Positions 1,043 through 61,786 of a stretch of 64,000 bases of DNA are shown one piece after another. Within the stretch, counting starts at the first letter, position 1. Every line of letters begins with the position of its first letter. Below the pieces are notes generated by a model that saw nothing but the letters and a program-made list of their open reading frames with translations, did no database searches and was not told the DNA's origin. Origin of the DNA: an uncultured Algoriphagus sp. (GTDB lineage Bacteria; Bacteroidota; Bacteroidia; Cytophagales; Cyclobacteriaceae); contig CBFHWO010000006.1 of NCBI GenBank assembly GCA_965659625.1, positions 24,587 to 88,586 of the forward strand, read 5' to 3'. Made by a program: the position numbers and the translations under genes.

Positions 1043-3147
1043 ATATAAAACGATCCATATTGCTCCGAGTAAGGGTGGTTTTCATCTTGGTTGCTCTGAT
1101 TGCAGCAGCAATACCCTATCGTATTGCCCAGTTGCAATTGGACGAAGGAGATAAATGGAGAGAAAAAGCAGAAACCATCAATTTTCAATATAGAGAAGTT
1201 GCTGCTACTAGGGGGAATGTTTATGCGGGTGATGGAAGTCTTTTGGCTACCAGTCTTCCTTTTTATAGAGTAGCAATAGATCCGACTATGGTAAAAGAGG
1301 ATCGTTATAAAGCTAAAATTGATTCACTCTCTGAGAAGCTTTCCGCTTTCTATAAGGATAAGTCGGCGAAGGCATATAAACGAATGATCAATGATGCCCG
1401 AAAAGATAACAAGCGTTATTTGGTATTGAATAGAAGACAGATTGGATATCAGGATATGCAGATGATGTCCACCTGGCCTATTTTCAGAGGAGGGCGATTG
1501 GGAGGTGGAGTTCTATTCGAAAAAGTAGAAAAAAGATATAGACCATTTAATTCCCTTGCCAGCAGAACAGTTGGCTTTTTGAATGAAGATGATTACGGTG
1601 CAGGAATAGAGTATTCGTACAATTCATATTTAAAGGGAAAGGATGGGAAAGCATTGTTTCAAAGATTGGCAGGAGGAAGCTGGAAACCTGTTTTTGATGC
1701 GGAGGATGTCAAGCCTGAAAATGGTTTTGACGTGGTTACAACCTTAGACGTGAATATTCAAGATGTGGCTGAGACGGCTTTATTGGCTCAATTGATAGAT
1801 CGGGATGCAGAGTTTGGTTCTGTGATCGTCATGGAAGTGAAAACTGGGCAAATCAAAGCTATAGCAAATCTTCAAAAAAATAAAAGTGGAAATGGATACG
1901 GCGAAAATTACAATTTTGCCATCGGAGATCAGGGAAATACAGAGCCTGGATCCACGTTCAAGCTACTTTCCATGTTGGCACTTTTAGAAGAGAATAAAAT
2001 CAGCTTAAACGATAAAGTGGAGACCGGGAATGGAACTCATAAATTCTATGACCGCACCATGCGAGATGCTAAAAATGGTGGGTATGGGACTTTAACCATC
2101 CGGGAAGCTTTTGAGAAATCTTCAAATGTTGGTATTTCAAAATTAGTAGATGAACATTTCGGTTCAAGTCCTTCCAAATTCATGGCCTATGTAGATCAAG
2201 CTGGATTGAAAGAGCCAGTTGGATTCCAGTTGATAGGGGAAGGGAAGCCCTATTTTAAAAAGCCTGGCGATAAAAACTGGTATGGAACATCCTTGCCTTG
2301 GATTTCTATTGGGTATGAAATCAAGTTAAATCCACTTCATACGCTTGCATTATATAATGCAGTCGCCAATGGAGGCATTATGGTGAAGCCGATGATTGTC
2401 AAGGCAATTGCCAAAGGAAATACAATCCAAGAGAGATATGACACTGAAATAATCCGGAAACAAATAGCTTCAGATAAAACAATCAAGCAATTACAAGAGC
2501 TTTTGGAAGGTGTAGTAGTACGGGGAACAGCAAAAAATATCGCAAATGCCGACTATAAAATTGCAGGGAAAACAGGAACTGCCCAAAAGTTAATTGACGG
2601 AAGATATACCCAAAAGTACTACACAAGTTTTGCGGGCTATTTTCCAGCGGACAATCCTAAATATTCCATGATTGTGGTGATTGATAGCCCAAAAGGCTTT
2701 GCTGCTTATGGAGGTGATGTCTCAGCGCCGGTCTTTAAGGAAATCGCAGACCGGATTTATGCTTTGGATATTGAATTGAATCCATCTAATCAAACCCAGA
2801 TTTTCCAGGCCGAAAATAACAATCCAAAGACTCCATTTATAAGAGCAGGGAGAGGCGGAGAGTTAAATGAGATTTTTGATGAATTAGGTTTGAAAGCCAG
2901 TCCTGCAAATGCAGAAGAATGGGTGAGGACTGTCTCAAATGGGGACAATATCCAATGGCAGGACAATGAAATGGATAAACCAATTGTTCCTGATGTTTCA
3001 GGATTGCCACTAAAGGATGCCTTATTTATCCTCGAAAATAAAGGACTGAAAGTCAATTATTCCGGTAAGGGAGTTGTGAAAAATCAATCTCTTTCTCCTG
3101 GAACTGAATTAATCAATAATGCCACCATTAACCTTGTATTGGGCTAA
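1039..3147 (+). CDS. ftsI: Penicillin-binding protein 3 / FtsI transpeptidase with a C-terminal PASTA-like domain
   Basis: The GTG start overlaps the ftsL stop (GTGA). It has an N-terminal TM anchor and the transpeptidase motifs STFK, SSN and KTGT. The C-terminal roughly 60 aa (VPDVSGLPLKDALFILENKGLKV...) looks PASTA-like. Confidence 0.93.
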   Translation: MNIKRSILLRVRVVFILVALIAAAIPYRIAQLQLDEGDKWREKAETINFQYREVAATRGNVYAGDGSLLATSLPFYRVAIDPTMVKEDRYKAKIDSLSEKLSAFYKDKSAKAYKRMINDARKDNKRYLVLNRRQIGYQDMQMMSTWPIFRGGRLGGGVLFEKVEKRYRPFNSLASRTVGFLNEDDYGAGIEYSYNSYLKGKDGKALFQRLAGGSWKPVFDAEDVKPENGFDVVTTLDVNIQDVAETALLAQLIDRDAEFGSVIVMEVKTGQIKAIANLQKNKSGNGYGENYNFAIGDQGNTEPGSTFKLLSMLALLEENKISLNDKVETGNGTHKFYDRTMRDAKNGGYGTLTIREAFEKSSNVGISKLVDEHFGSSPSKFMAYVDQAGLKEPVGFQLIGEGKPYFKKPGDKNWYGTSLPWISIGYEIKLNPLHTLALYNAVANGGIMVKPMIVKAIAKGNTIQERYDTEIIRKQIASDKTIKQLQELLEGVVVRGTAKNIANADYKIAGKTGTAQKLIDGRYTQKYYTSFAGYFPADNPKYSMIVVIDSPKGFAAYGGDVSAPVFKEIADRIYALDIELNPSNQTQIFQAENNNPKTPFIRAGRGGELNEIFDELGLKASPANAEEWVRTVSNGDNIQWQDNEMDKPIVPDVSGLPLKDALFILENKGLKVNYSGKGVVKNQSLSPGTELINNATINLVLG

Positions 3148-7184: not shown

Positions 7185-8347
7185 ATCAGTTTAAGGCATG
7201 GATAGATGAACACTTCAAGGGCGACCCACTTATTTGGGGGATTGTGATCTTGTTGTCGCTCTTCAGTATTCTGGTAGTTTACTCTGCAACAGGATCTTTG
7301 GCATACAAATATGCCGGAGGCAATACTGAAGTGTATTTATTCAGGCATTCTTTCTTGGTACTAGTATCACTGGTAGTAATGTGGTTTGCGCATAAAATCC
7401 CATATAAGAACTATGCTCTTTACGCCAGATTGGCCATGTTCCTTTCGATTCCATTATTGCTGTTGACCTATATGTTTGGCTCAAATATCAATGAGGCAAA
7501 TAGATGGTTGACCATACCGGTGATTAATCAAGCGTTCCAACCTTCAGATTTGGCAAAACTCGCTTTGATAGCAGCTTTGGCGGCCATGCTTGCTAGAAAA
7601 CAAAATAATATCAAAGACTTCAAAAACACATTTGTCCCGATCATCATTTCTATTGGGGTGATTTGCTTACTGATTGCGATGGCAAATATGTCAACAGCAA
7701 TATTGCTTCTTTTGACTTGTCTGCTCATCATGTTTATTGGCCGGGTACCAGTGAAATATCTCGCAATGGTAGTCATGGTCGGTGTACTTGGATTGACAGC
7801 GGCAGTTTTCTTAGGCCAAAGAGGGGAAACCTTCTTTTCCAGAATTGAGGCATTTATGGATGAGGAGGAAGTTCCTTTCCAAGCAGAACAGTCCTATATC
7901 GCGATTGCAACTGGTGGAGTAACGGGCAAGGGGCCCGGAAATAGCGAACAGAGAAATTCATTGCCTCATCCTTATTCGGATTTTATCTATGCCATCATTA
8001 TTGAAGAATACGGTGTTGTTGGTGGTGTTTCTGTCCTCTTTCTCTATTTGGCTTTGCTATACAGAGGAATGAGAATCGTCGCCAATTCCAATAAAGCATT
8101 TGGAGGATTGTTGTCAGCGGGACTCAGCTTTGCCTTGGTGATTCAAGCCTTGGTGAATATGGCCGTGGCAGTAGGTCTTGGACCAATTACAGGATTGCCT
8201 CTTCCGCTCCTAAGTATGGGAGGAACTTCCTTGGTATTTACGGGAATATCCTTAGGAATTATCCTCTCGGTAAGTCGAGGGGATCATCAAGATGAAGAAT
8301 CGGGCAGCATTGCGGCATTGAATAAATCAAGATTAAAAACAGCTTAA
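7181..8347 (+). CDS. ftsW: SEDS-family peptidoglycan glycosyltransferase FtsW
   Basis: It has about 10 TM segments and SEDS motifs (PSDLAKLALI, LPHPYSDFIYA, GLPLPLLSMGGTS). The ATGA overlap with the murD stop couples the two genes. Confidence 0.92.
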   Translation: MNQFKAWIDEHFKGDPLIWGIVILLSLFSILVVYSATGSLAYKYAGGNTEVYLFRHSFLVLVSLVVMWFAHKIPYKNYALYARLAMFLSIPLLLLTYMFGSNINEANRWLTIPVINQAFQPSDLAKLALIAALAAMLARKQNNIKDFKNTFVPIIISIGVICLLIAMANMSTAILLLLTCLLIMFIGRVPVKYLAMVVMVGVLGLTAAVFLGQRGETFFSRIEAFMDEEEVPFQAEQSYIAIATGGVTGKGPGNSEQRNSLPHPYSDFIYAIIIEEYGVVGGVSVLFLYLALLYRGMRIVANSNKAFGGLLSAGLSFALVIQALVNMAVAVGLGPITGLPLPLLSMGGTSLVFTGISLGIILSVSRGDHQDEESGSIAALNKSRLKTA

Positions 8348-24198: not shown

Positions 24199-25104
24199 AT
24201 GTCCTTAGAAGTATCGCAACTCACCAAACTTTACGGAACCCAAAAAGCACTGGATAATGTGTCTTTCAAGGCTTCGCCCGGGAGGATTTTGGGGTTTTTG
24301 GGTCCCAATGGTGCTGGAAAATCTACAACGATGAAAATCATCACCGGATTTATTCAGGCAGATTCAGGAGCAGTTACGGTAATGGGAAAAGATGCTCTAA
24401 ATAATCCCAAGCAGGTTAGTCCAATGATTGGCTATTTACCTGAAAACAACCCTCTTTATTTAGATATGTATGTGAGAGAGTTTTTGGAGTTTTCTGCTGG
24501 AATGTATGGGTTAACCGGTAAAAAAAGAGAAGAGAGAATTAAAGAACTTCTCCAGAAAACCGGATTGATTCCTGAGCAACACAAAAAAATCGGGCAACTT
24601 TCTAAAGGGTATCGACAAAGAGTTGGATTGGCAAGAGCATTGATTCATGATCCGCAACTGATCATATTAGATGAGCCCACTACGGGATTAGATCCAAACC
24701 AGTTGGTAGAAATCCGAAACCTTATTTCTGAAATTGCTCGTGATAAAACTCTCATTCTTTCTACTCATATTATGCAGGAAGTGGAGGCGATTTGTCATGA
24801 TGTGGTCATCATCAATAAAGGAAAAATCCTAGCTTCTGAGACATTGGAGAATTTGAAATCAAGAACTTCAGAGGAGCAGTTAGAACTCGAGACAGAGGAA
24901 AATCTTGAGCTAGAATGGTTTCAAGAAATAGGAGCGGCTTCTTTTAGTAAAAAATCAGAAAAATCACTTCTGATTTCTTGCAAGGATGCTGGCGAAGCTC
25001 GGAAAGCTATCATGAAAGTTGTTCAGGAAAAGAATCTTAACTTGATAAGCATGAATCAAAGTAAAAAGAATTTGGAACAAATTTTCAGAGAGATTACGCA
25101 ATGA
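24199..25104 (+). CDS. gldA: Gliding-motility-associated ABC transporter ATP-binding subunit GldA
   Basis: It has Walker A (GPNGAGKST), the ABC signature (LSKGYRQR) and Walker B (LIILDEP). Genes of GldF and GldG type follow it. Confidence 0.85.
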   Translation: MSLEVSQLTKLYGTQKALDNVSFKASPGRILGFLGPNGAGKSTTMKIITGFIQADSGAVTVMGKDALNNPKQVSPMIGYLPENNPLYLDMYVREFLEFSAGMYGLTGKKREERIKELLQKTGLIPEQHKKIGQLSKGYRQRVGLARALIHDPQLIILDEPTTGLDPNQLVEIRNLISEIARDKTLILSTHIMQEVEAICHDVVIINKGKILASETLENLKSRTSEEQLELETEENLELEWFQEIGAASFSKKSEKSLLISCKDAGEARKAIMKVVQEKNLNLISMNQSKKNLEQIFREITQ

Positions 25105-25191
25105 AATCGAGCATGACTAAAATGTTACCCACTGGAACAGCTATTAACCATGCGAGATTCCTGATGACCTTTGAAAAACAATTATAAACAG
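25101..25191 (+). repeat. Unit 1 of an ATGAAA-bounded ~90-nt repeat family; contains an intact 28-codon ORF (25101-25187: MKSSMTKMLPTGTAINHARFLMTFEKQL)
   Basis: It shows 5 differences from unit 2 over the first ~72 nt. Its ATG at 25101 overlaps the gldA stop at 25102-25104 (ATGA). Whether it is translated is unproven. Confidence 0.8.
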
Positions 25192-25287
25192 ATGAAATCG
25201 AGCATGACTAAAATGTTACACAATGGAACAGCAATTAACCATGCGAGAATCTTGATGACCTTAAAGAGACAAATCATAATCACATGA
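25192..25287 (+). repeat. Unit 2 of the same repeat family; contains an intact 31-codon ORF (MKSSMTKMLHNGTAINHARILMTLKRQIIIT)
   Basis: It is a direct tandem copy of unit 1. Its stop TGA at 25285-25287 overlaps the gldF ATG at 25284-25286 (ATGA). Confidence 0.8.
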
Positions 25288-26003
25288 AAAGCCTGTTTCT
25301 AAAAGAATTAAATGCATTTTTTGGGAGTCTTTTGGGCTATTTGGTTTTGGCCCTATTCTTAGTTGCAATTGGCTTGATTGTGTGGGTTTTTCCAGAGAGT
25401 AGCGTTCTTGAATATGGCTATGCTGATTTGGAGGCCTTGTTTACCTACACTCCCTATGTATTTACATTTTTAGTGCCTGCTTTAGCGATGCGATCAATCG
25501 CTGACGAAAGAAAAACAGGAACTTGGGAGTTGCTCAGAACTTCTCCGCTTTCATTATTGAAAATTATTTTAGCTAAGTATTTTGCTTTGCTCTTTTTAGT
25601 GATTTTGGCAGTTTTGCCCACCCTGCTTTATTTCTTTAGCATTATACAATTGGGAGATCCGGTCGGCAATTTGGATCAAGCAGGATTTTTTGGATCCTGG
25701 ATAGGTTTGCTGATGATCGGAGCAGTATTTGCGGCGGTTGGTTTATTTGCGAGTTCTCTGACTTCTCAGCAGGTCTTGGCCTTCGTTCTCGGAGTGTTTT
25801 TGTGCTTTGTTCTATACTTTGGGTTTTCAGCTTTGGCGGATTTGCAAGTTGGTGATTTTGCATATTGGGTGGAGGAATTGAGCTTAAGCTTTCATTATAT
25901 CAATTTGAGCAGAGGCGTGGTAGATTCTTCAGACATCTTTTTTATGCTGGGTATGATTTGGCTTTTCTTGGGATTGAGTGTTTTGACTTTGAAAAATAAA
26001 TGA
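25284..26003 (+). CDS. gldF: Gliding-motility-associated ABC transporter permease GldF
   Basis: It is a 239-aa ABC-2-type permease with 6 TM segments and the N-terminus MKSLFLKELNAFFGS. It lies between gldA and gldG. Confidence 0.82.
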   Translation: MKSLFLKELNAFFGSLLGYLVLALFLVAIGLIVWVFPESSVLEYGYADLEALFTYTPYVFTFLVPALAMRSIADERKTGTWELLRTSPLSLLKIILAKYFALLFLVILAVLPTLLYFFSIIQLGDPVGNLDQAGFFGSWIGLLMIGAVFAAVGLFASSLTSQQVLAFVLGVFLCFVLYFGFSALADLQVGDFAYWVEELSLSFHYINLSRGVVDSSDIFFMLGMIWLFLGLSVLTLKNK

Positions 26004-27808: not shown

Positions 27809-28933
27809 ATGAAATTTATTGTTTCCTCTTCTGCCTTACTTAAGCAGCTTTCGGCGATCAACGGTGTGGTAACAACCAATCCTGTTGTTCCTATTTTGGA
27901 AAACTTCCTTTTTGAGATAAAAGACGGTGTATTGACCATTACTGCATCAGATCTTCAGACATCTATGATTACTGAAATTCCAGTGGAGGCCAAGGAAGAT
28001 GGGAATATTGCGGTTCCTGCGCGTATTTTGATTGATACATTGAAGAATTTGCCAGAGCAGCCAGTTACTTTCAGTATTGATCATGATACCTATGCTGTGG
28101 AGATCAGTTCTGATAATGGTCGATATAGACTAGCTGGAGAGAATGCAACGGATTTTCCTAAGATTCCGACTGTAAGCAATGCTACGACTGTGGACATGTC
28201 TACAGAGGTTCTTGCAAGTGCTGTTTCTAATACTATTTTCGCGACCAGCTCAGATGAATTGAGACCAGCAATGACCGGTGTTTATATTAACTTGAGCTCC
28301 ACAAATACTACGTTTGTAGCTACTGATGGCCATCGTTTGGTTCGTTATAGAAGAGTTGATGTAGCCTCTTCTGATGCTGCAAGTTTGATCATTCCCCGCA
28401 AGGCTTTAAACTTGTTGAAATCTACTTTGCCTTCCGAGAATGTACCTGTTTCAGTAGAATTCAACCAATCAAATGCCTATTTCAAATTCAGCAGTATCAA
28501 AATGATCTGTCGATTGATTGACGAGCGTTTTCCGGATTATGAAAATGTTATTCCGGCAGAGAATCCTAATTTAATGACGATCGATCGCTCTGAGCTGTTG
28601 AGTTCATTGAGACGAATCGCAATCTATGCTAATAAAACTACACACCAGGTTAGATTAAAACTGACAGGAAGTGAATTGTTGATATCTGCCGAAGATCTTG
28701 ATTTCTCCAATGAGGCGAACGAAAGGTTATCATGTGAGCATGATGGTGAAGATATTGAAATAGGCTTCAATGCGAAGTTCTTGGTAGAAATGTTGAATAA
28801 CCTCTCTTGTAAAGAAGTTACTTTGAAATTCTCTGCTCCAAACCGTGCAGGATTAATTGTCCCTGCTGAGCAAGATGAAAATGAAGACATCCTGATGCTA
28901 GTTATGCCGGTGATGTTGAATAATTACGTATAA
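27809..28933 (+). CDS. dnaN: DNA polymerase III beta sliding clamp
   Basis: It has the N-terminus MKFIVSSSALLKQLSAINGVV and the three-domain clamp length (374 aa). The C-terminus reads LMLVMPVML. Confidence 0.93.
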   Translation: MKFIVSSSALLKQLSAINGVVTTNPVVPILENFLFEIKDGVLTITASDLQTSMITEIPVEAKEDGNIAVPARILIDTLKNLPEQPVTFSIDHDTYAVEISSDNGRYRLAGENATDFPKIPTVSNATTVDMSTEVLASAVSNTIFATSSDELRPAMTGVYINLSSTNTTFVATDGHRLVRYRRVDVASSDAASLIIPRKALNLLKSTLPSENVPVSVEFNQSNAYFKFSSIKMICRLIDERFPDYENVIPAENPNLMTIDRSELLSSLRRIAIYANKTTHQVRLKLTGSELLISAEDLDFSNEANERLSCEHDGEDIEIGFNAKFLVEMLNNLSCKEVTLKFSAPNRAGLIVPAEQDENEDILMLVMPVMLNNYV

Positions 28934-59912: not shown

Positions 59913-60005
59913 ATGAAATTGAGCATGACTCATAGCGTCCAACAGAGGGATGATTGTAATTCGAGATTCCATATGACCAAAAAAAATCAAATTATAAACG
60001 TATGA
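59913..60005 (+). repeat. Unit 3 of the ATGAAA-bounded ~90-nt repeat family; contains an intact 30-codon ORF (MKLSMTHSVQQRDDCNSRFHMTKKNQIINV)
   Basis: It shares the 5' box ATGAAATTGAGCATGACT, the 3' box CGAGATTCC.TATGACC and the tail CAAATTATAAAC with the units at 25101 and 25192. Its stop TGA at 60003-60005 overlaps the GH15 ATG at 60002-60004. Confidence 0.75.
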
Positions 60006-61786
60006 AAAAACATACCTATGGAAGTGGGTTGATTGGTAATTGTGCTTATATCGCCCATGTAGAGAAGGACACCAATATCAGCTGGCTTTGTCTTCCTAGA
60101 TTTGACTCAGATTTTATTTTCGGTGGCATGCTGGATCGCGAAAGAGGAGGTCAGTTTACGATCTTGCCAGAATCCAGCGATTTTGAAACCACTCAAGTCT
60201 ATAAGGAAAACACCAATATCCTGGAGACAACTGTGACTTATGGAGAGAACAACAGCTATAAGGTGACGGACTTTGCTCCAAGATTTAAGAATTTTGACCG
60301 ATACTATAAGCCATTGATGCTTATCCGAAAAATAGAAAGCCTAACTGGCTCACCTAGGATAAAGATAAAATGTGAACCAGTTTCTGATAATGGCAAGACC
60401 AAATTAATCCCAAGCCTAGGAAGTAATCATATTCGGTATACTGGAATTGATCAGGAATTGAGATTGACAACAAATGCTCCTATGAGCTATATTATGGATG
60501 ACAAAGCGTTTGCTTTTCACCGCCCTGTTTATTTGATTTTGACTTATGGCAGACCTTTGGAAGCTCCAATTGAGACAACTGCTGAAAAGTTTTTACATGA
60601 GACAACCTCTTATTGGCAGCAGTGGGTGAAGTCAACCAGTATTCCAAACTTTCATCAGAAGTTTGTTTTGAGGTCCGCTTTGATTCTTAAAATACATCAA
60701 TATGAGGATACTGGAGCCATTATCGCCGCATCGACCACCAGTTTGCCCGAGTCTCCAAATTCGACTAGAAATTGGGATTACCGATATTGCTGGATCCGGG
60801 ATACTTATTATACTTTGACTTGTTTCAATAGTCTTGGACACTTTGAGGAGCTGGAGAAGTACTTTGAGTTTATTCATAATCTAAATACTGGTGAAAATGG
60901 ACGCTATCAGCCATTGTATTCGATTACAGGAAACTCCCTTTTAACAGAAGAGATTTCTGATCTTGATGGGTATTTGGGAAATAAACCGGTTCGTTTTGGA
61001 AATCAAGCCTATACGCATATTCAGAATGACCTTTATGGTCAAGTACTCGTGTCACTTTTGCCTTTGTATTCTGATCAAAGATTTACAAAAGAAGAAAGAA
61101 GTCACTCCAGACCGATGATCATGAACTTGCTGAATAAAATCGAGTCAACCATGAACGAAAAAGATGCAGGGTTGTGGGAGTTCAGGAATCTTGCGCAAGA
61201 GCATTGCTATACCTTTTTATTTCATTGGGCTGGAGCAAGTGCAGCTGCAAAAATAGGGATCCGTTTAAAAAACGATGACATGTACCAAAAGGCAATCTAT
61301 CTAAGAGATGAGGCAGTTAAGAAGATAGAATCGTGTTATCTACCGGATAAGAAAGCCTATGGCCAAGCTGTTGGTTCATCGTTTATGGATGCTTCTACTC
61401 TTCAACTCATTACGATGGGTTATTTTGGCGATGACATAGAGCGAGCCAATGACCATTTGAAGGCTTTGGAAGATGAGCTTTTGGCAAAAGATTTTCTCTT
61501 CTACCGGTATAAGCATATGGATGATTTTGGAATACCGGAAACCACTTTTCTGATTTGTGCATTTTGGTATATTGAGGCTTTAGCTTGTGTAGAAAGGGTA
61601 GATGAAGCCATAGAAGGATTTGAAACTTTGATAAAATATTGCAATCATTTGGATCTATTCTCGGAAGATGTTGACCAAAAAACAGGAAGTCAATGGGGGA
61701 ATTTCCCACAGGCATATTCCCACGTTGGTCTGATGAATGCAGCTTACCGAATCGGAAAGAAACTGGATAGGCCAAATTTCTTATAA
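60002..61786 (+). CDS. Glycoside hydrolase family 15 protein (glucoamylase/trehalase-like)
   Basis: It has the N-terminus GLIGNCAYIAHV...ISWLCLPRFDS and the later motifs WDYRYCWIRD and FPQAYSHVGL. Confidence 0.88.
   Translation: MKKHTYGSGLIGNCAYIAHVEKDTNISWLCLPRFDSDFIFGGMLDRERGGQFTILPESSDFETTQVYKENTNILETTVTYGENNSYKVTDFAPRFKNFDRYYKPLMLIRKIESLTGSPRIKIKCEPVSDNGKTKLIPSLGSNHIRYTGIDQELRLTTNAPMSYIMDDKAFAFHRPVYLILTYGRPLEAPIETTAEKFLHETTSYWQQWVKSTSIPNFHQKFVLRSALILKIHQYEDTGAIIAASTTSLPESPNSTRNWDYRYCWIRDTYYTLTCFNSLGHFEELEKYFEFIHNLNTGENGRYQPLYSITGNSLLTEEISDLDGYLGNKPVRFGNQAYTHIQNDLYGQVLVSLLPLYSDQRFTKEERSHSRPMIMNLLNKIESTMNEKDAGLWEFRNLAQEHCYTFLFHWAGASAAAKIGIRLKNDDMYQKAIYLRDEAVKKIESCYLPDKKAYGQAVGSSFMDASTLQLITMGYFGDDIERANDHLKALEDELLAKDFLFYRYKHMDDFGIPETTFLICAFWYIEALACVERVDEAIEGFETLIKYCNHLDLFSEDVDQKTGSQWGNFPQAYSHVGLMNAAYRIGKKLDRPNFL

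Follow-up and report, generated by a model that had tools for sequence, protein, structure and literature searches.

The spacer between the genes gldA and gldF of an uncultured Algoriphagus sp. was analyzed in a stretch of 64,000 nucleotides (contig CBFHWO010000006.1, positions 24,587 to 88,586 of the forward strand), referred to here as the window; the homologues of GldF also place the organism in Algoriphagus (Cyclobacteriaceae, Bacteroidota). This spacer (25105-25283, 179 nt) is made of two tandem units of about 91 nt, each with a micro open reading frame (micro-ORF), and both units are very likely copies of a mobile repeat. The features of the junction, numbered from the first letter of the window, are as follows:

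24199-25104, plus strand: gldA, coding for an ATP-binding cassette (ABC) ATPase of 301 amino acids (list of ORFs; Pfam ABC_tran on an identical gene)
25101-25191, plus strand: unit 1, 91 nt (Tandem Repeats Finder; nhmmer, E=1.5e-20; covariance model, 88.8 bits; predicted fold; alignment of orthologues)
25101-25106, within unit 1: ATGAAA
25105-25113, within unit 1: 5' arm of the helix P0
25114-25127, within unit 1: hairpin P1
25151-25159, within unit 1: 3' arm of P0
25158-25169, within unit 1: block TTCCTGATGACC
25170-25191, within unit 1: A-rich tail
25101-25187, plus strand: micro-ORF 1, 28 codons, whose stop codon TAA lies 4 nt upstream of the next ATG
25192-25283, plus strand: unit 2, 92 nt (alignment, nhmmer, covariance model)
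25192-25287, plus strand: micro-ORF 2, 31 codons, whose TGA overlaps the gldF ATG (ATGA)
25284-26003, plus strand: gldF, coding for an ABC-2 permease of 239 amino acids, which opens with the target hexamer ATGAAA (25284-25289)

The region 25101-25289 was detected by Tandem Repeats Finder with a period of 91, 2.1 copies and 86% matches. When both units were aligned globally, 5 mismatches were counted in the first 72 nt, and the tails were diverged and differed by one indel. The repetition is beyond chance, since cores of 28 nt and 24 nt matched twice when none was expected (100 shuffles). The stop codon of gldA (TGA, 25102-25104) shares bases with the ATG of unit 1 (ATGA), the hexamer ATGAAA opens unit 1, unit 2 and gldF alike, and a further ATGA overlap joins gldF and gldG at 26000-26003. 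The spacer of two copies with 5 differences in 72 nt, the positions of the micro-ORFs, both ATGA overlaps at the junction, the three hexamers and the gldF/gldG overlap had all been given by an initial annotation made from the sequence, and they held when compared with the list of ORFs, Tandem Repeats Finder and the alignment.

The same annotation had proposed an insertion bounded on either side by ATGAAA and having an ordinary ATGA overlap as its empty site, and the junctions of relatives bore this out. No unit was present at gldA/gldF in L004, L006 and L075 (loci are designated by L and a number), where the empty sites read ...ATGAAAAG..., a plain ATGA overlap; one unit was found in L002/L003, L036/L073 and L074, and two in the window. 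Two other sites in the window were informative:

27809-27814, plus strand: ATGAAA start of dnaN, an unoccupied target in the window
59913-60001, plus strand: unit 3, 89 nt (local alignment; nhmmer; covariance model, 83.9 bits)
60002-61786, plus strand: gene of a GH15 glycoside hydrolase of 594 amino acids, whose ATGAAA start (60002-60007) took unit 3

The dnaN site is empty in the window and in three relatives (CGAT/ATGAAA/TTTATT), and it is filled in A. winogradskyi (L041 1751-1841), where a 91-nt unit lies between two ATGAAA at the same point. The GH15 site is empty in L061, the closest relative found (CTTTA/ATGAAA/AAACAT), and also in two further relatives with the starts ATGGAA or ATGCAA, while in the window unit 3 lies between two ATGAAA. 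Thus, three independent filled/empty pairs (gldA/gldF, dnaN and GH15) showed a precise insertion, 89-92 nt long and flanked on each side by ATGAAA. Unit 3, a more diverged copy that the initial annotation had overlooked, sits in a spacer of 199 nt and ends exactly at the start of the GH15 gene; its micro-ORF (59913-60005, 30 codons) ends in a TGA overlapping the GH15 ATG. The search for further copies in the window with nhmmer (E<100) and the unfiltered covariance model returned these three units only.

The history of the pair at gldA/gldF was also analyzed. The orthologues of unit 1 are the single units of L002, L036/L073 and L074. Unit 2 is confined to the lineage of the window, the closest relative (L002) carrying one unit. 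The body of unit 2 is 93% identical to that of unit 1, both bodies being each other's nearest relatives within the family, and its tail belongs to a different tail variant of the family. The pair may have originated by duplication, by a second insertion followed by conversion, or by recombination. Two successive insertions had been suggested before: the insertion was confirmed, and the succession is left unsettled by the similarity of the bodies and the different type of the second tail. Over the GldA tree, whose bootstrap support was weak, the gld unit is scattered patchily. Taken with the signature that the gld units share, this distribution points to a single old insertion followed by precise loss, for which deletion between the ATGAAA repeats is a plausible route. 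The oldest-looking unit at this junction is that of L074 (1110-1206), with degraded blocks, a gldF start that now reads ATGAAT, and a 28-codon frame open to the same TAA.

To survey the family, 185,579 species genomes (one genome per species) were scanned with a pattern derived from its conserved blocks. A total of 50 loci were obtained, about 46 of which belong to Algoriphagus (at least 19 genomes), Anditalea and Lunatibacter, and the matches were essentially confined to the Cyclobacteriaceae. The analysis of these loci with nhmmer gave 79 matches, which amount to 65 different units of full length, arranged in 61 arrays (46 single, 14 double and one triple); as the survey rests on the 8-kb neighbourhoods of the loci, the copy numbers per genome are lower bounds. 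Additionally, 11 more loci or contigs with identical architecture were found in a metagenome scan, and no match to the unit was obtained in the plasmid, phage and IMG/VR collections. Typical units were also seen on contigs filed as a Planctomycetota metagenome-assembled genome (MAG) with 39% GC (L023) and a Limnohabitans MAG with 48% GC (L042), which are probably misbinned Cyclobacteriaceae.

No relevant match was found in Rfam, either for the window region (E up to 10) or for four loci with 12 units (E up to 1), and in the searchable literature a repeat of this kind was not found described for Algoriphagus or Bacteroidota. The family is apparently undescribed so far; the initial annotation had recognized no known repeat, non-coding RNA or peptide family, and Pfam and NCBIfam gave no match either. 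A weak match to a T-box leader was seen in L026 (645-830, minus strand; E=0.024, 26.8 bits where the gathering score is 93); it has no relation to the units and is probably noise. The assignment of unit 1 to a hammerhead-type ribozyme (CUGAUGA...GAAA) was rejected, as this motif is restricted to units of the gld type, CAUAUGA stands in its place in most units, and Rfam gave no match.

Regarding the target, nearly all units start with ATGAAA, are directly followed by ATGAAA and have a fixed orientation. A deviation from ATGAAA at one end of a unit was not mirrored at the other end, which indicates a fixed sequence and not a generic target-site duplication. The ATG of a long ORF adjoins 46 of the 61 arrays (about 75%); the genes downstream are mutually unrelated, without any functional theme, and nearly all begin with Met-Lys. 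The expectation that copies across genomes would adjoin ATGAAA start codons in the same orientation was thus confirmed. In the window, apart from those made by the units, ATGAAA occurs 101 times inside genes, 19 times at gene starts and four times in intergenic DNA; it starts 19 of the 56 long ORFs of the window and 23% of the unit-free long ORFs across all loci. Harmless ATGAAA targets are very abundant. Hexamer specificity combined with the loss of gene-disrupting insertions predicts about 80% of the copies at start codons, as observed, and recognition of the start codon as such is therefore not needed. Hence, of the earlier idea of an element targeting Met-Lys starts, the ATGAAA target was retained and the recognition of start codons was dispensable.

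Since each unit brings its own ATGAAA, it provides a new target, and this fits the formation of tandem arrays by repeated insertion. Adjacent units in arrays were 0.70 identical, compared with 0.76 for units of one genome that are not neighbours, and arrays combine different subfamilies. Two neighbouring units of different subfamilies in L037 (1518-1700) have tails that are 100% identical. From this pair, and from the reverse pattern in the pair of the window, bodies and tails seem to differ in their history, having recombined at the conserved blocks.

The anatomy of the unit was deduced from an alignment of 68 units. A near-invariant ATGAAATCGAGCATGACT is followed by a variable middle, a near-invariant GCGAGATTCCATATGACC and an A-rich tail that extends up to the next ATG; the block ATTCCATATGACC is invariant. 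Each unit has one folded domain, in which the long-range helix P0 encloses the hairpin P1 (TGACT-loop-AGTCA). Double compensatory changes were found at three pairs of P1, and its covariation score was reached by none of 500 shuffles; an RNA alignment of the copies had been suggested as a check for covariation, and P1 gave a positive answer. P0 is formed by AAATCGAGCA/TGCGAGATT with a tandem G.A and is weakly maintained in the main family. In a second subfamily (L025 111-199, L026 1390-1476, L022 7067-7152 and L037 1518-1605) the arms of P0 are swapped for the perfectly complementary AAATGCCC/GGGCATT, with a compensated variant AAATACCC/GGGTATT. These units fold strongly (z-scores of -2.2 to -3.6) and have their own P1 hairpin, share the CACAGGGGGATGATT segment, the ATTCCAT.TG block and the tail with the main family, and occur with it in mixed arrays.

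A third helix, P2, is a candidate. In it, the block CAUNUGA would pair with the end of the tail and the downstream AUG. The bases N and N' covary, G going with C in six of seven cases and C with G in two of three (Fisher P=1e-4). In P2, an A.G mismatch is present in half of the units; the gld-type units (CCTGATGACC) are unable to form the helix, and unit 3 is able to form it with the start codon. The tail contains 52% A, versus 37% in native -25..-1 regions. For the Bacteroidota promoter TAnnTTTG, checked by eye in the unit, only the partial match GACCTTTG was seen, and TTTG is not conserved. Two units have an altered length: in L030 (about 7359-7455, minus strand) the unit is split after GATTC by a palindrome of about 25 nt, rich in GC (TCCCGATCCGCCGCGGCGGACGGGA), which looks like another kind of small palindromic repeat nested in the unit; in L057 (1365-1463) P1 is lengthened by an 8-nt insertion to a perfect palindrome of 10-11 bp (TGATCCCGTACGTACGGGATCA), so that the hairpin is kept and its length is changed.

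The micro-ORFs were then considered in the whole family. The consensus frame is open and ends at a TAA 4 nt before the next ATG in the 91-nt units, or in an ATGA overlap in the 92-nt units. This frame is shared by the four conserved ATGs, at positions 1, 13, 37 and 64 of the unit, and at five independent loci the stop codon of the upstream gene overlaps the ATG of the unit. Such an arrangement would suit translational-coupling adaptors: the micro-ORF would have to be translated, by ribosomes coming from gldA or starting at the ATG of the unit, which would either stop at or beside the gldF ATG and start anew there, or open a helix masking the start codon. The inclusion of the downstream AUG in the candidate P2, with its covarying N/N', points in the same direction, and the same logic has been proposed for MIRUs, the interspersed repetitive units of mycobacteria (PMC12548453). 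However, the frame from the ATG to the tail is kept in 37 of the 65 units (57%) and broken in 43%, the ATG being absent in nine. Frameshifts are not avoided, as 15 indels in the middle of the unit are frameshifting versus seven in-frame, and in-frame stops are not depleted relative to column permutation (P=0.47). Moreover, P2 is impossible in precisely the gld-type units, a half-conserved ATG (position 50) is out of frame, and three of four further ATGs in frame would be expected by chance with a probability of about 0.1. Coupling is therefore regarded as a tentative and rather unlikely explanation of the micro-ORFs.

Coding selection on the micro-ORFs was rejected, as the variability by codon position (0.127, 0.141 and 0.134, without excess at the third position), the permutation of stops and the lengths of the indels were all neutral. 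The open frame looks like a feature of the original sequence through which insertion is tolerated, and not like a gene. The micro-ORFs reported as intact are so in both units of the spacer, by inheritance from the family consensus; their maintenance by selection found no support.

The evolution of the units after insertion was analyzed in a handful of pairs of orthologous units, recognized by the same flanks and shared private variants. The identities of the units and of the 4-fold sites of the adjacent gene were the following:

Window and L036: units 0.85; 4-fold sites 0.32 (saturation 0.26)
L002 and L036: units 0.90; 4-fold sites 0.27
L064 and L017: units 0.92; 4-fold sites 0.43
L010 and L044: units 0.98; 4-fold sites 0.66

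Overall, orthologous units were 0.80-0.98 identical, versus 0.27-0.66 for the 4-fold sites, which in Jukes-Cantor terms makes the evolution of the units 5-20 times slower than that of 4-fold synonymous sites. The intergenic DNA upstream of gldA was 0.53-0.70 identical in the same genomes. The gld units keep their private signature (TTAGCCATG, CCTGATGACC, ...TTATAACCAG) across splits at which the synonymous sites are saturated. From this slow evolution we infer purifying selection at the nucleotide level and a probable role in cis.

Purely selfish units without function, tolerated at start codons and decaying neutrally after insertion, would explain their patchy presence among close relatives, the decayed copies (L074 and the upstream units of arrays) and the lack of a functional theme among the genes downstream. 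Neutral decay does not agree with orthologous units that are conserved above both the 4-fold sites and the neighbouring intergenic DNA, nor with a gld signature that survives where synonymous sites are saturated, and this explanation is considered improbable.

Functional small peptides or regulatory leader peptides encoded by the micro-ORFs are far less probable still. The frames are open in the three copies of the window, and a pattern MKSSMT...RF.MT recurs loosely, but the conserved blocks show their conservation at all three codon positions, and the differences between orthologues are mostly non-synonymous (about 8:1 for L014/L017 and about 11:2 for the window and L036). With 43% of the frames broken and the micro-ORF products belonging to no family of Pfam or NCBIfam at E up to 10 (a single chance match of 12 bits), the leader-peptide alternative of the initial annotation lost its support. 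Finally, an origin of the spacer by local tandem duplication of the 3' end of gldA or the 5' end of gldF, suggested by a weak resemblance of the unit to both flanks by eye, is refuted by flank alignment scores equal to those of shuffled units (P about 0.45) and by the presence of the unit at dozens of unrelated loci.

The reading preferred here, and a very likely one, is that both units of the spacer are copies of a mobile, non-autonomous repeat of the Cyclobacteriaceae, of about 91 nt, which is targeted to ATGAAA and later became a constrained cis element. The data show that the unit integrates at ATGAAA in a fixed orientation, leaving the hexamer on both sides. Insertions inside genes would be lost, and the survivors lie mostly on start codons, including those of ATGA-overlapped pairs such as gldA/gldF. 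Rather than relying on Shine-Dalgarno pairing, translation in Bacteroidota is initiated where the context is A-rich and unstructured and no other AUG lies close by (PMC6847099). The insertion would rebuild the start codon behind an A-rich leader of low GC, independent of a Shine-Dalgarno sequence, and would thus be tolerated. A ribosome starting inside the unit would be delivered to the true start, making the insertion nearly harmless; the damage from extra AUGs would be limited, as P0 would bury the ATGAAA of the unit itself and the single frame would end at the true start.

Once inserted, the unit would act as a constrained cis element, most probably as a structured leader RNA at the 5' end of the downstream gene, with no constraint on a peptide. 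At gldA/gldF, the replacement of a 4-nt overlap by a structured spacer of 179 nt should tie the synthesis of GldF/GldG differently to that of GldA. The enzyme for mobilisation would act in trans and read the folded strand as well as the ATGAAA junctions; it could be an HUH transposase of the IS200/IS605 type or a structure-specific recombinase (cf. integron attC). Loss and changes in copy number would take place through deletion or duplication between the ATGAAA direct repeats.

Several observations weigh against this mobile and constrained element. No transposase or recombinase was found in the 8-kb neighbourhoods of the loci, where the all-versus-all BLAST of 562 ORFs gave no repeated transposase-like ORF. 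Several pairs of P0 are broken without compensation in the main family, and the RNAalifold consensus has three pairs of P1 only (-0.74 kcal/mol), so that the helices rest on the counts of pairs and on subfamily 2. G.U and A.C pairs amounted to 20 versus 17, which is uninformative on the folding strand and on RNA versus DNA. Position -3 of the tail is always C, and the tail is thus not an ideal initiation region, A being the favourable base at -3 in Flavobacterium (PMC6847099). Moreover, gene conversion from other copies could be a partial cause of the slow evolution of the units; it is unlikely at gld, where conversion would erase the private signature.

A bolder and doubtful version of the mobile element would be a structure-guided mobile DNA that chooses start codons by base pairing, through an invariant internal block, GATTCCATATGA, complementary to both junctions, and that in the mRNA controls translation. 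This block would guide the left junction (ATGAAAT) through the lower part of P0 and the right junction (CAN'/ATG) through P2. One folded strand would then show both ATGAAA junctions to an enzyme, as the guide sequences of IS200/IS605 do. The same pairings in the mRNA would hide a decoy or the true AUG, and would thereby set the translation of the captured gene. If true, it would represent a mobile, reprogrammable translational leader in a phylum without Shine-Dalgarno recognition.

Several known systems were compared with the Algoriphagus units. By principle, the closest known analogue of the ATGAAA-targeted repeat is the MIRU family, whose members were compared by description, with no claim of descent. 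MIRUs are apparently mobile, insert at start codons and have an internal ORF coupled to the gene with a -4 spacing (PMC12548453, citing Supply et al., 1997); filled and empty sites with 4-nt direct repeats, and ORFs that overlap adjacent genes, have been described for them (Delihas, 2011, PMC3184786). Both families consist of units of 40-100 bp at tens of loci, in direct tandem arrays of variable copy number, located between co-oriented genes or at gene starts, with internal inverted repeats and a small ORF overlapping the flanking stop or start. In both, a short direct repeat is seen when filled and empty sites are compared, and here (gld, dnaN and GH15) the difference amounts to the unit exactly. 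By contrast, the Algoriphagus units are found in Bacteroidota and not in Actinomycetota, and are AT-rich instead of GC-rich, so that homology is not expected. They have a fixed ATGAAA of 6 nt at both ends, whereas the repeat of MIRUs has 4 nt, and their start is preceded by an A-rich tail and not by a Shine-Dalgarno sequence, in a host that initiates without it. Covarying hairpins and slow evolution of orthologues were shown for the Algoriphagus units.

Repeats placed directly upstream of genes, with a start codon, initiation signals and two 5' stem-loops, have been described as REP2 in Neisseria and IR-A/IR-B in Borrelia (PMC3184786). They share with the present units the dispersion, the vicinity to gene starts, the start codon and the two 5' stem-loops. 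REP2 and IR-A/IR-B bring a promoter and a ribosome binding site of the Shine-Dalgarno type, whereas no promoter could be demonstrated in the present units, and those repeats are not described as inserting at a fixed hexamer.

The elements of the IS200/IS605 group (PATE, REP/RAYT) resemble the units in having neither terminal inverted repeats nor a variable target duplication, in their single orientation beside a fixed short sequence, in their dependence on folded hairpins and in their possible precise loss. The internal block complementary to both junctions (ATTCCAT/ATGAAAT; CATNTG/CAN'ATG) also resembles their pairing of guide and cleavage site. The differences lie in the folding, with hairpins at both ends in IS200/IS605 and one clear folded domain (P0/P1) with a candidate P2 at the right end in the Algoriphagus unit, and in the target, which here has 6 nt and is identical at both ends.

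A miniature inverted-repeat transposable element of the DDE-transposase type was discarded. Terminal inverted repeats are lacking, the left end (ATGAAA)TCGAGCATGACT being unrelated to the reverse-complemented right end CTGTTTATAATT; the sole inverted repeat, formed by the arms of P0, leaves 30 nt of inserted DNA outside; and the flanking repeat is always ATGAAA and not a duplication of variable sequence. The attC sites of integrons are similar in being folded, imperfect and mismatched hairpins, with the same short core at both boundaries and arrays formed by repeated insertion, whereas the Algoriphagus unit carries no gene. An attC identity was also rejected, as the consensus contains no R''/L''-L'/R' boxes and no GTTRRRY core, there is no integrase among the neighbouring ORFs, and no attI was seen.

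In Escherichia coli, a structured repetitive extragenic palindrome (REP) lies between the ABC-transporter cistrons malE and malF and changes the ratio of the upstream and downstream products. REPs stabilise the 3' end of the upstream mRNA and have no tie to start codons. The gld spacer is likewise a structured repeat between ABC-transporter cistrons.

The movement of MIRU-type repeats and their placement at start codons have been a question since 1997, which a second, unrelated family makes directly testable, thanks to the sharp 6-nt target, the polymorphism of zero, one or two units in near relatives, the covarying hairpins and the subfamilies with swapped arms. Moreover, a mobile repeat can be under strong nucleotide constraint at an essential-looking operon (the gldAFG ABC transporter of gliding motility; dnaN elsewhere), and the conservation of these sequences suggests that such elements may become working parts of 5' leaders in Bacteroidota. 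The units could additionally be used as copy-number markers for strain typing, like the variable-number tandem repeats of MIRUs (MIRU-VNTR).

From a practical point of view, the units break short-read assemblies and create spurious small ORFs or N-terminal extensions in annotations. In the short-read (Logan) assemblies of the organism of the window, breaks were seen inside the tandem units on both sides (L001, 1-110, and L059, 1096-1194). In a 93-nt unit (L026 4059-4151) and in a unit with a shortened tail (L023, about 2146-2231, minus strand), the frame of the unit continues into the downstream gene, so that the use of the ATG of the unit would give an N-terminal extension of 31 amino acids, a trap for gene callers.

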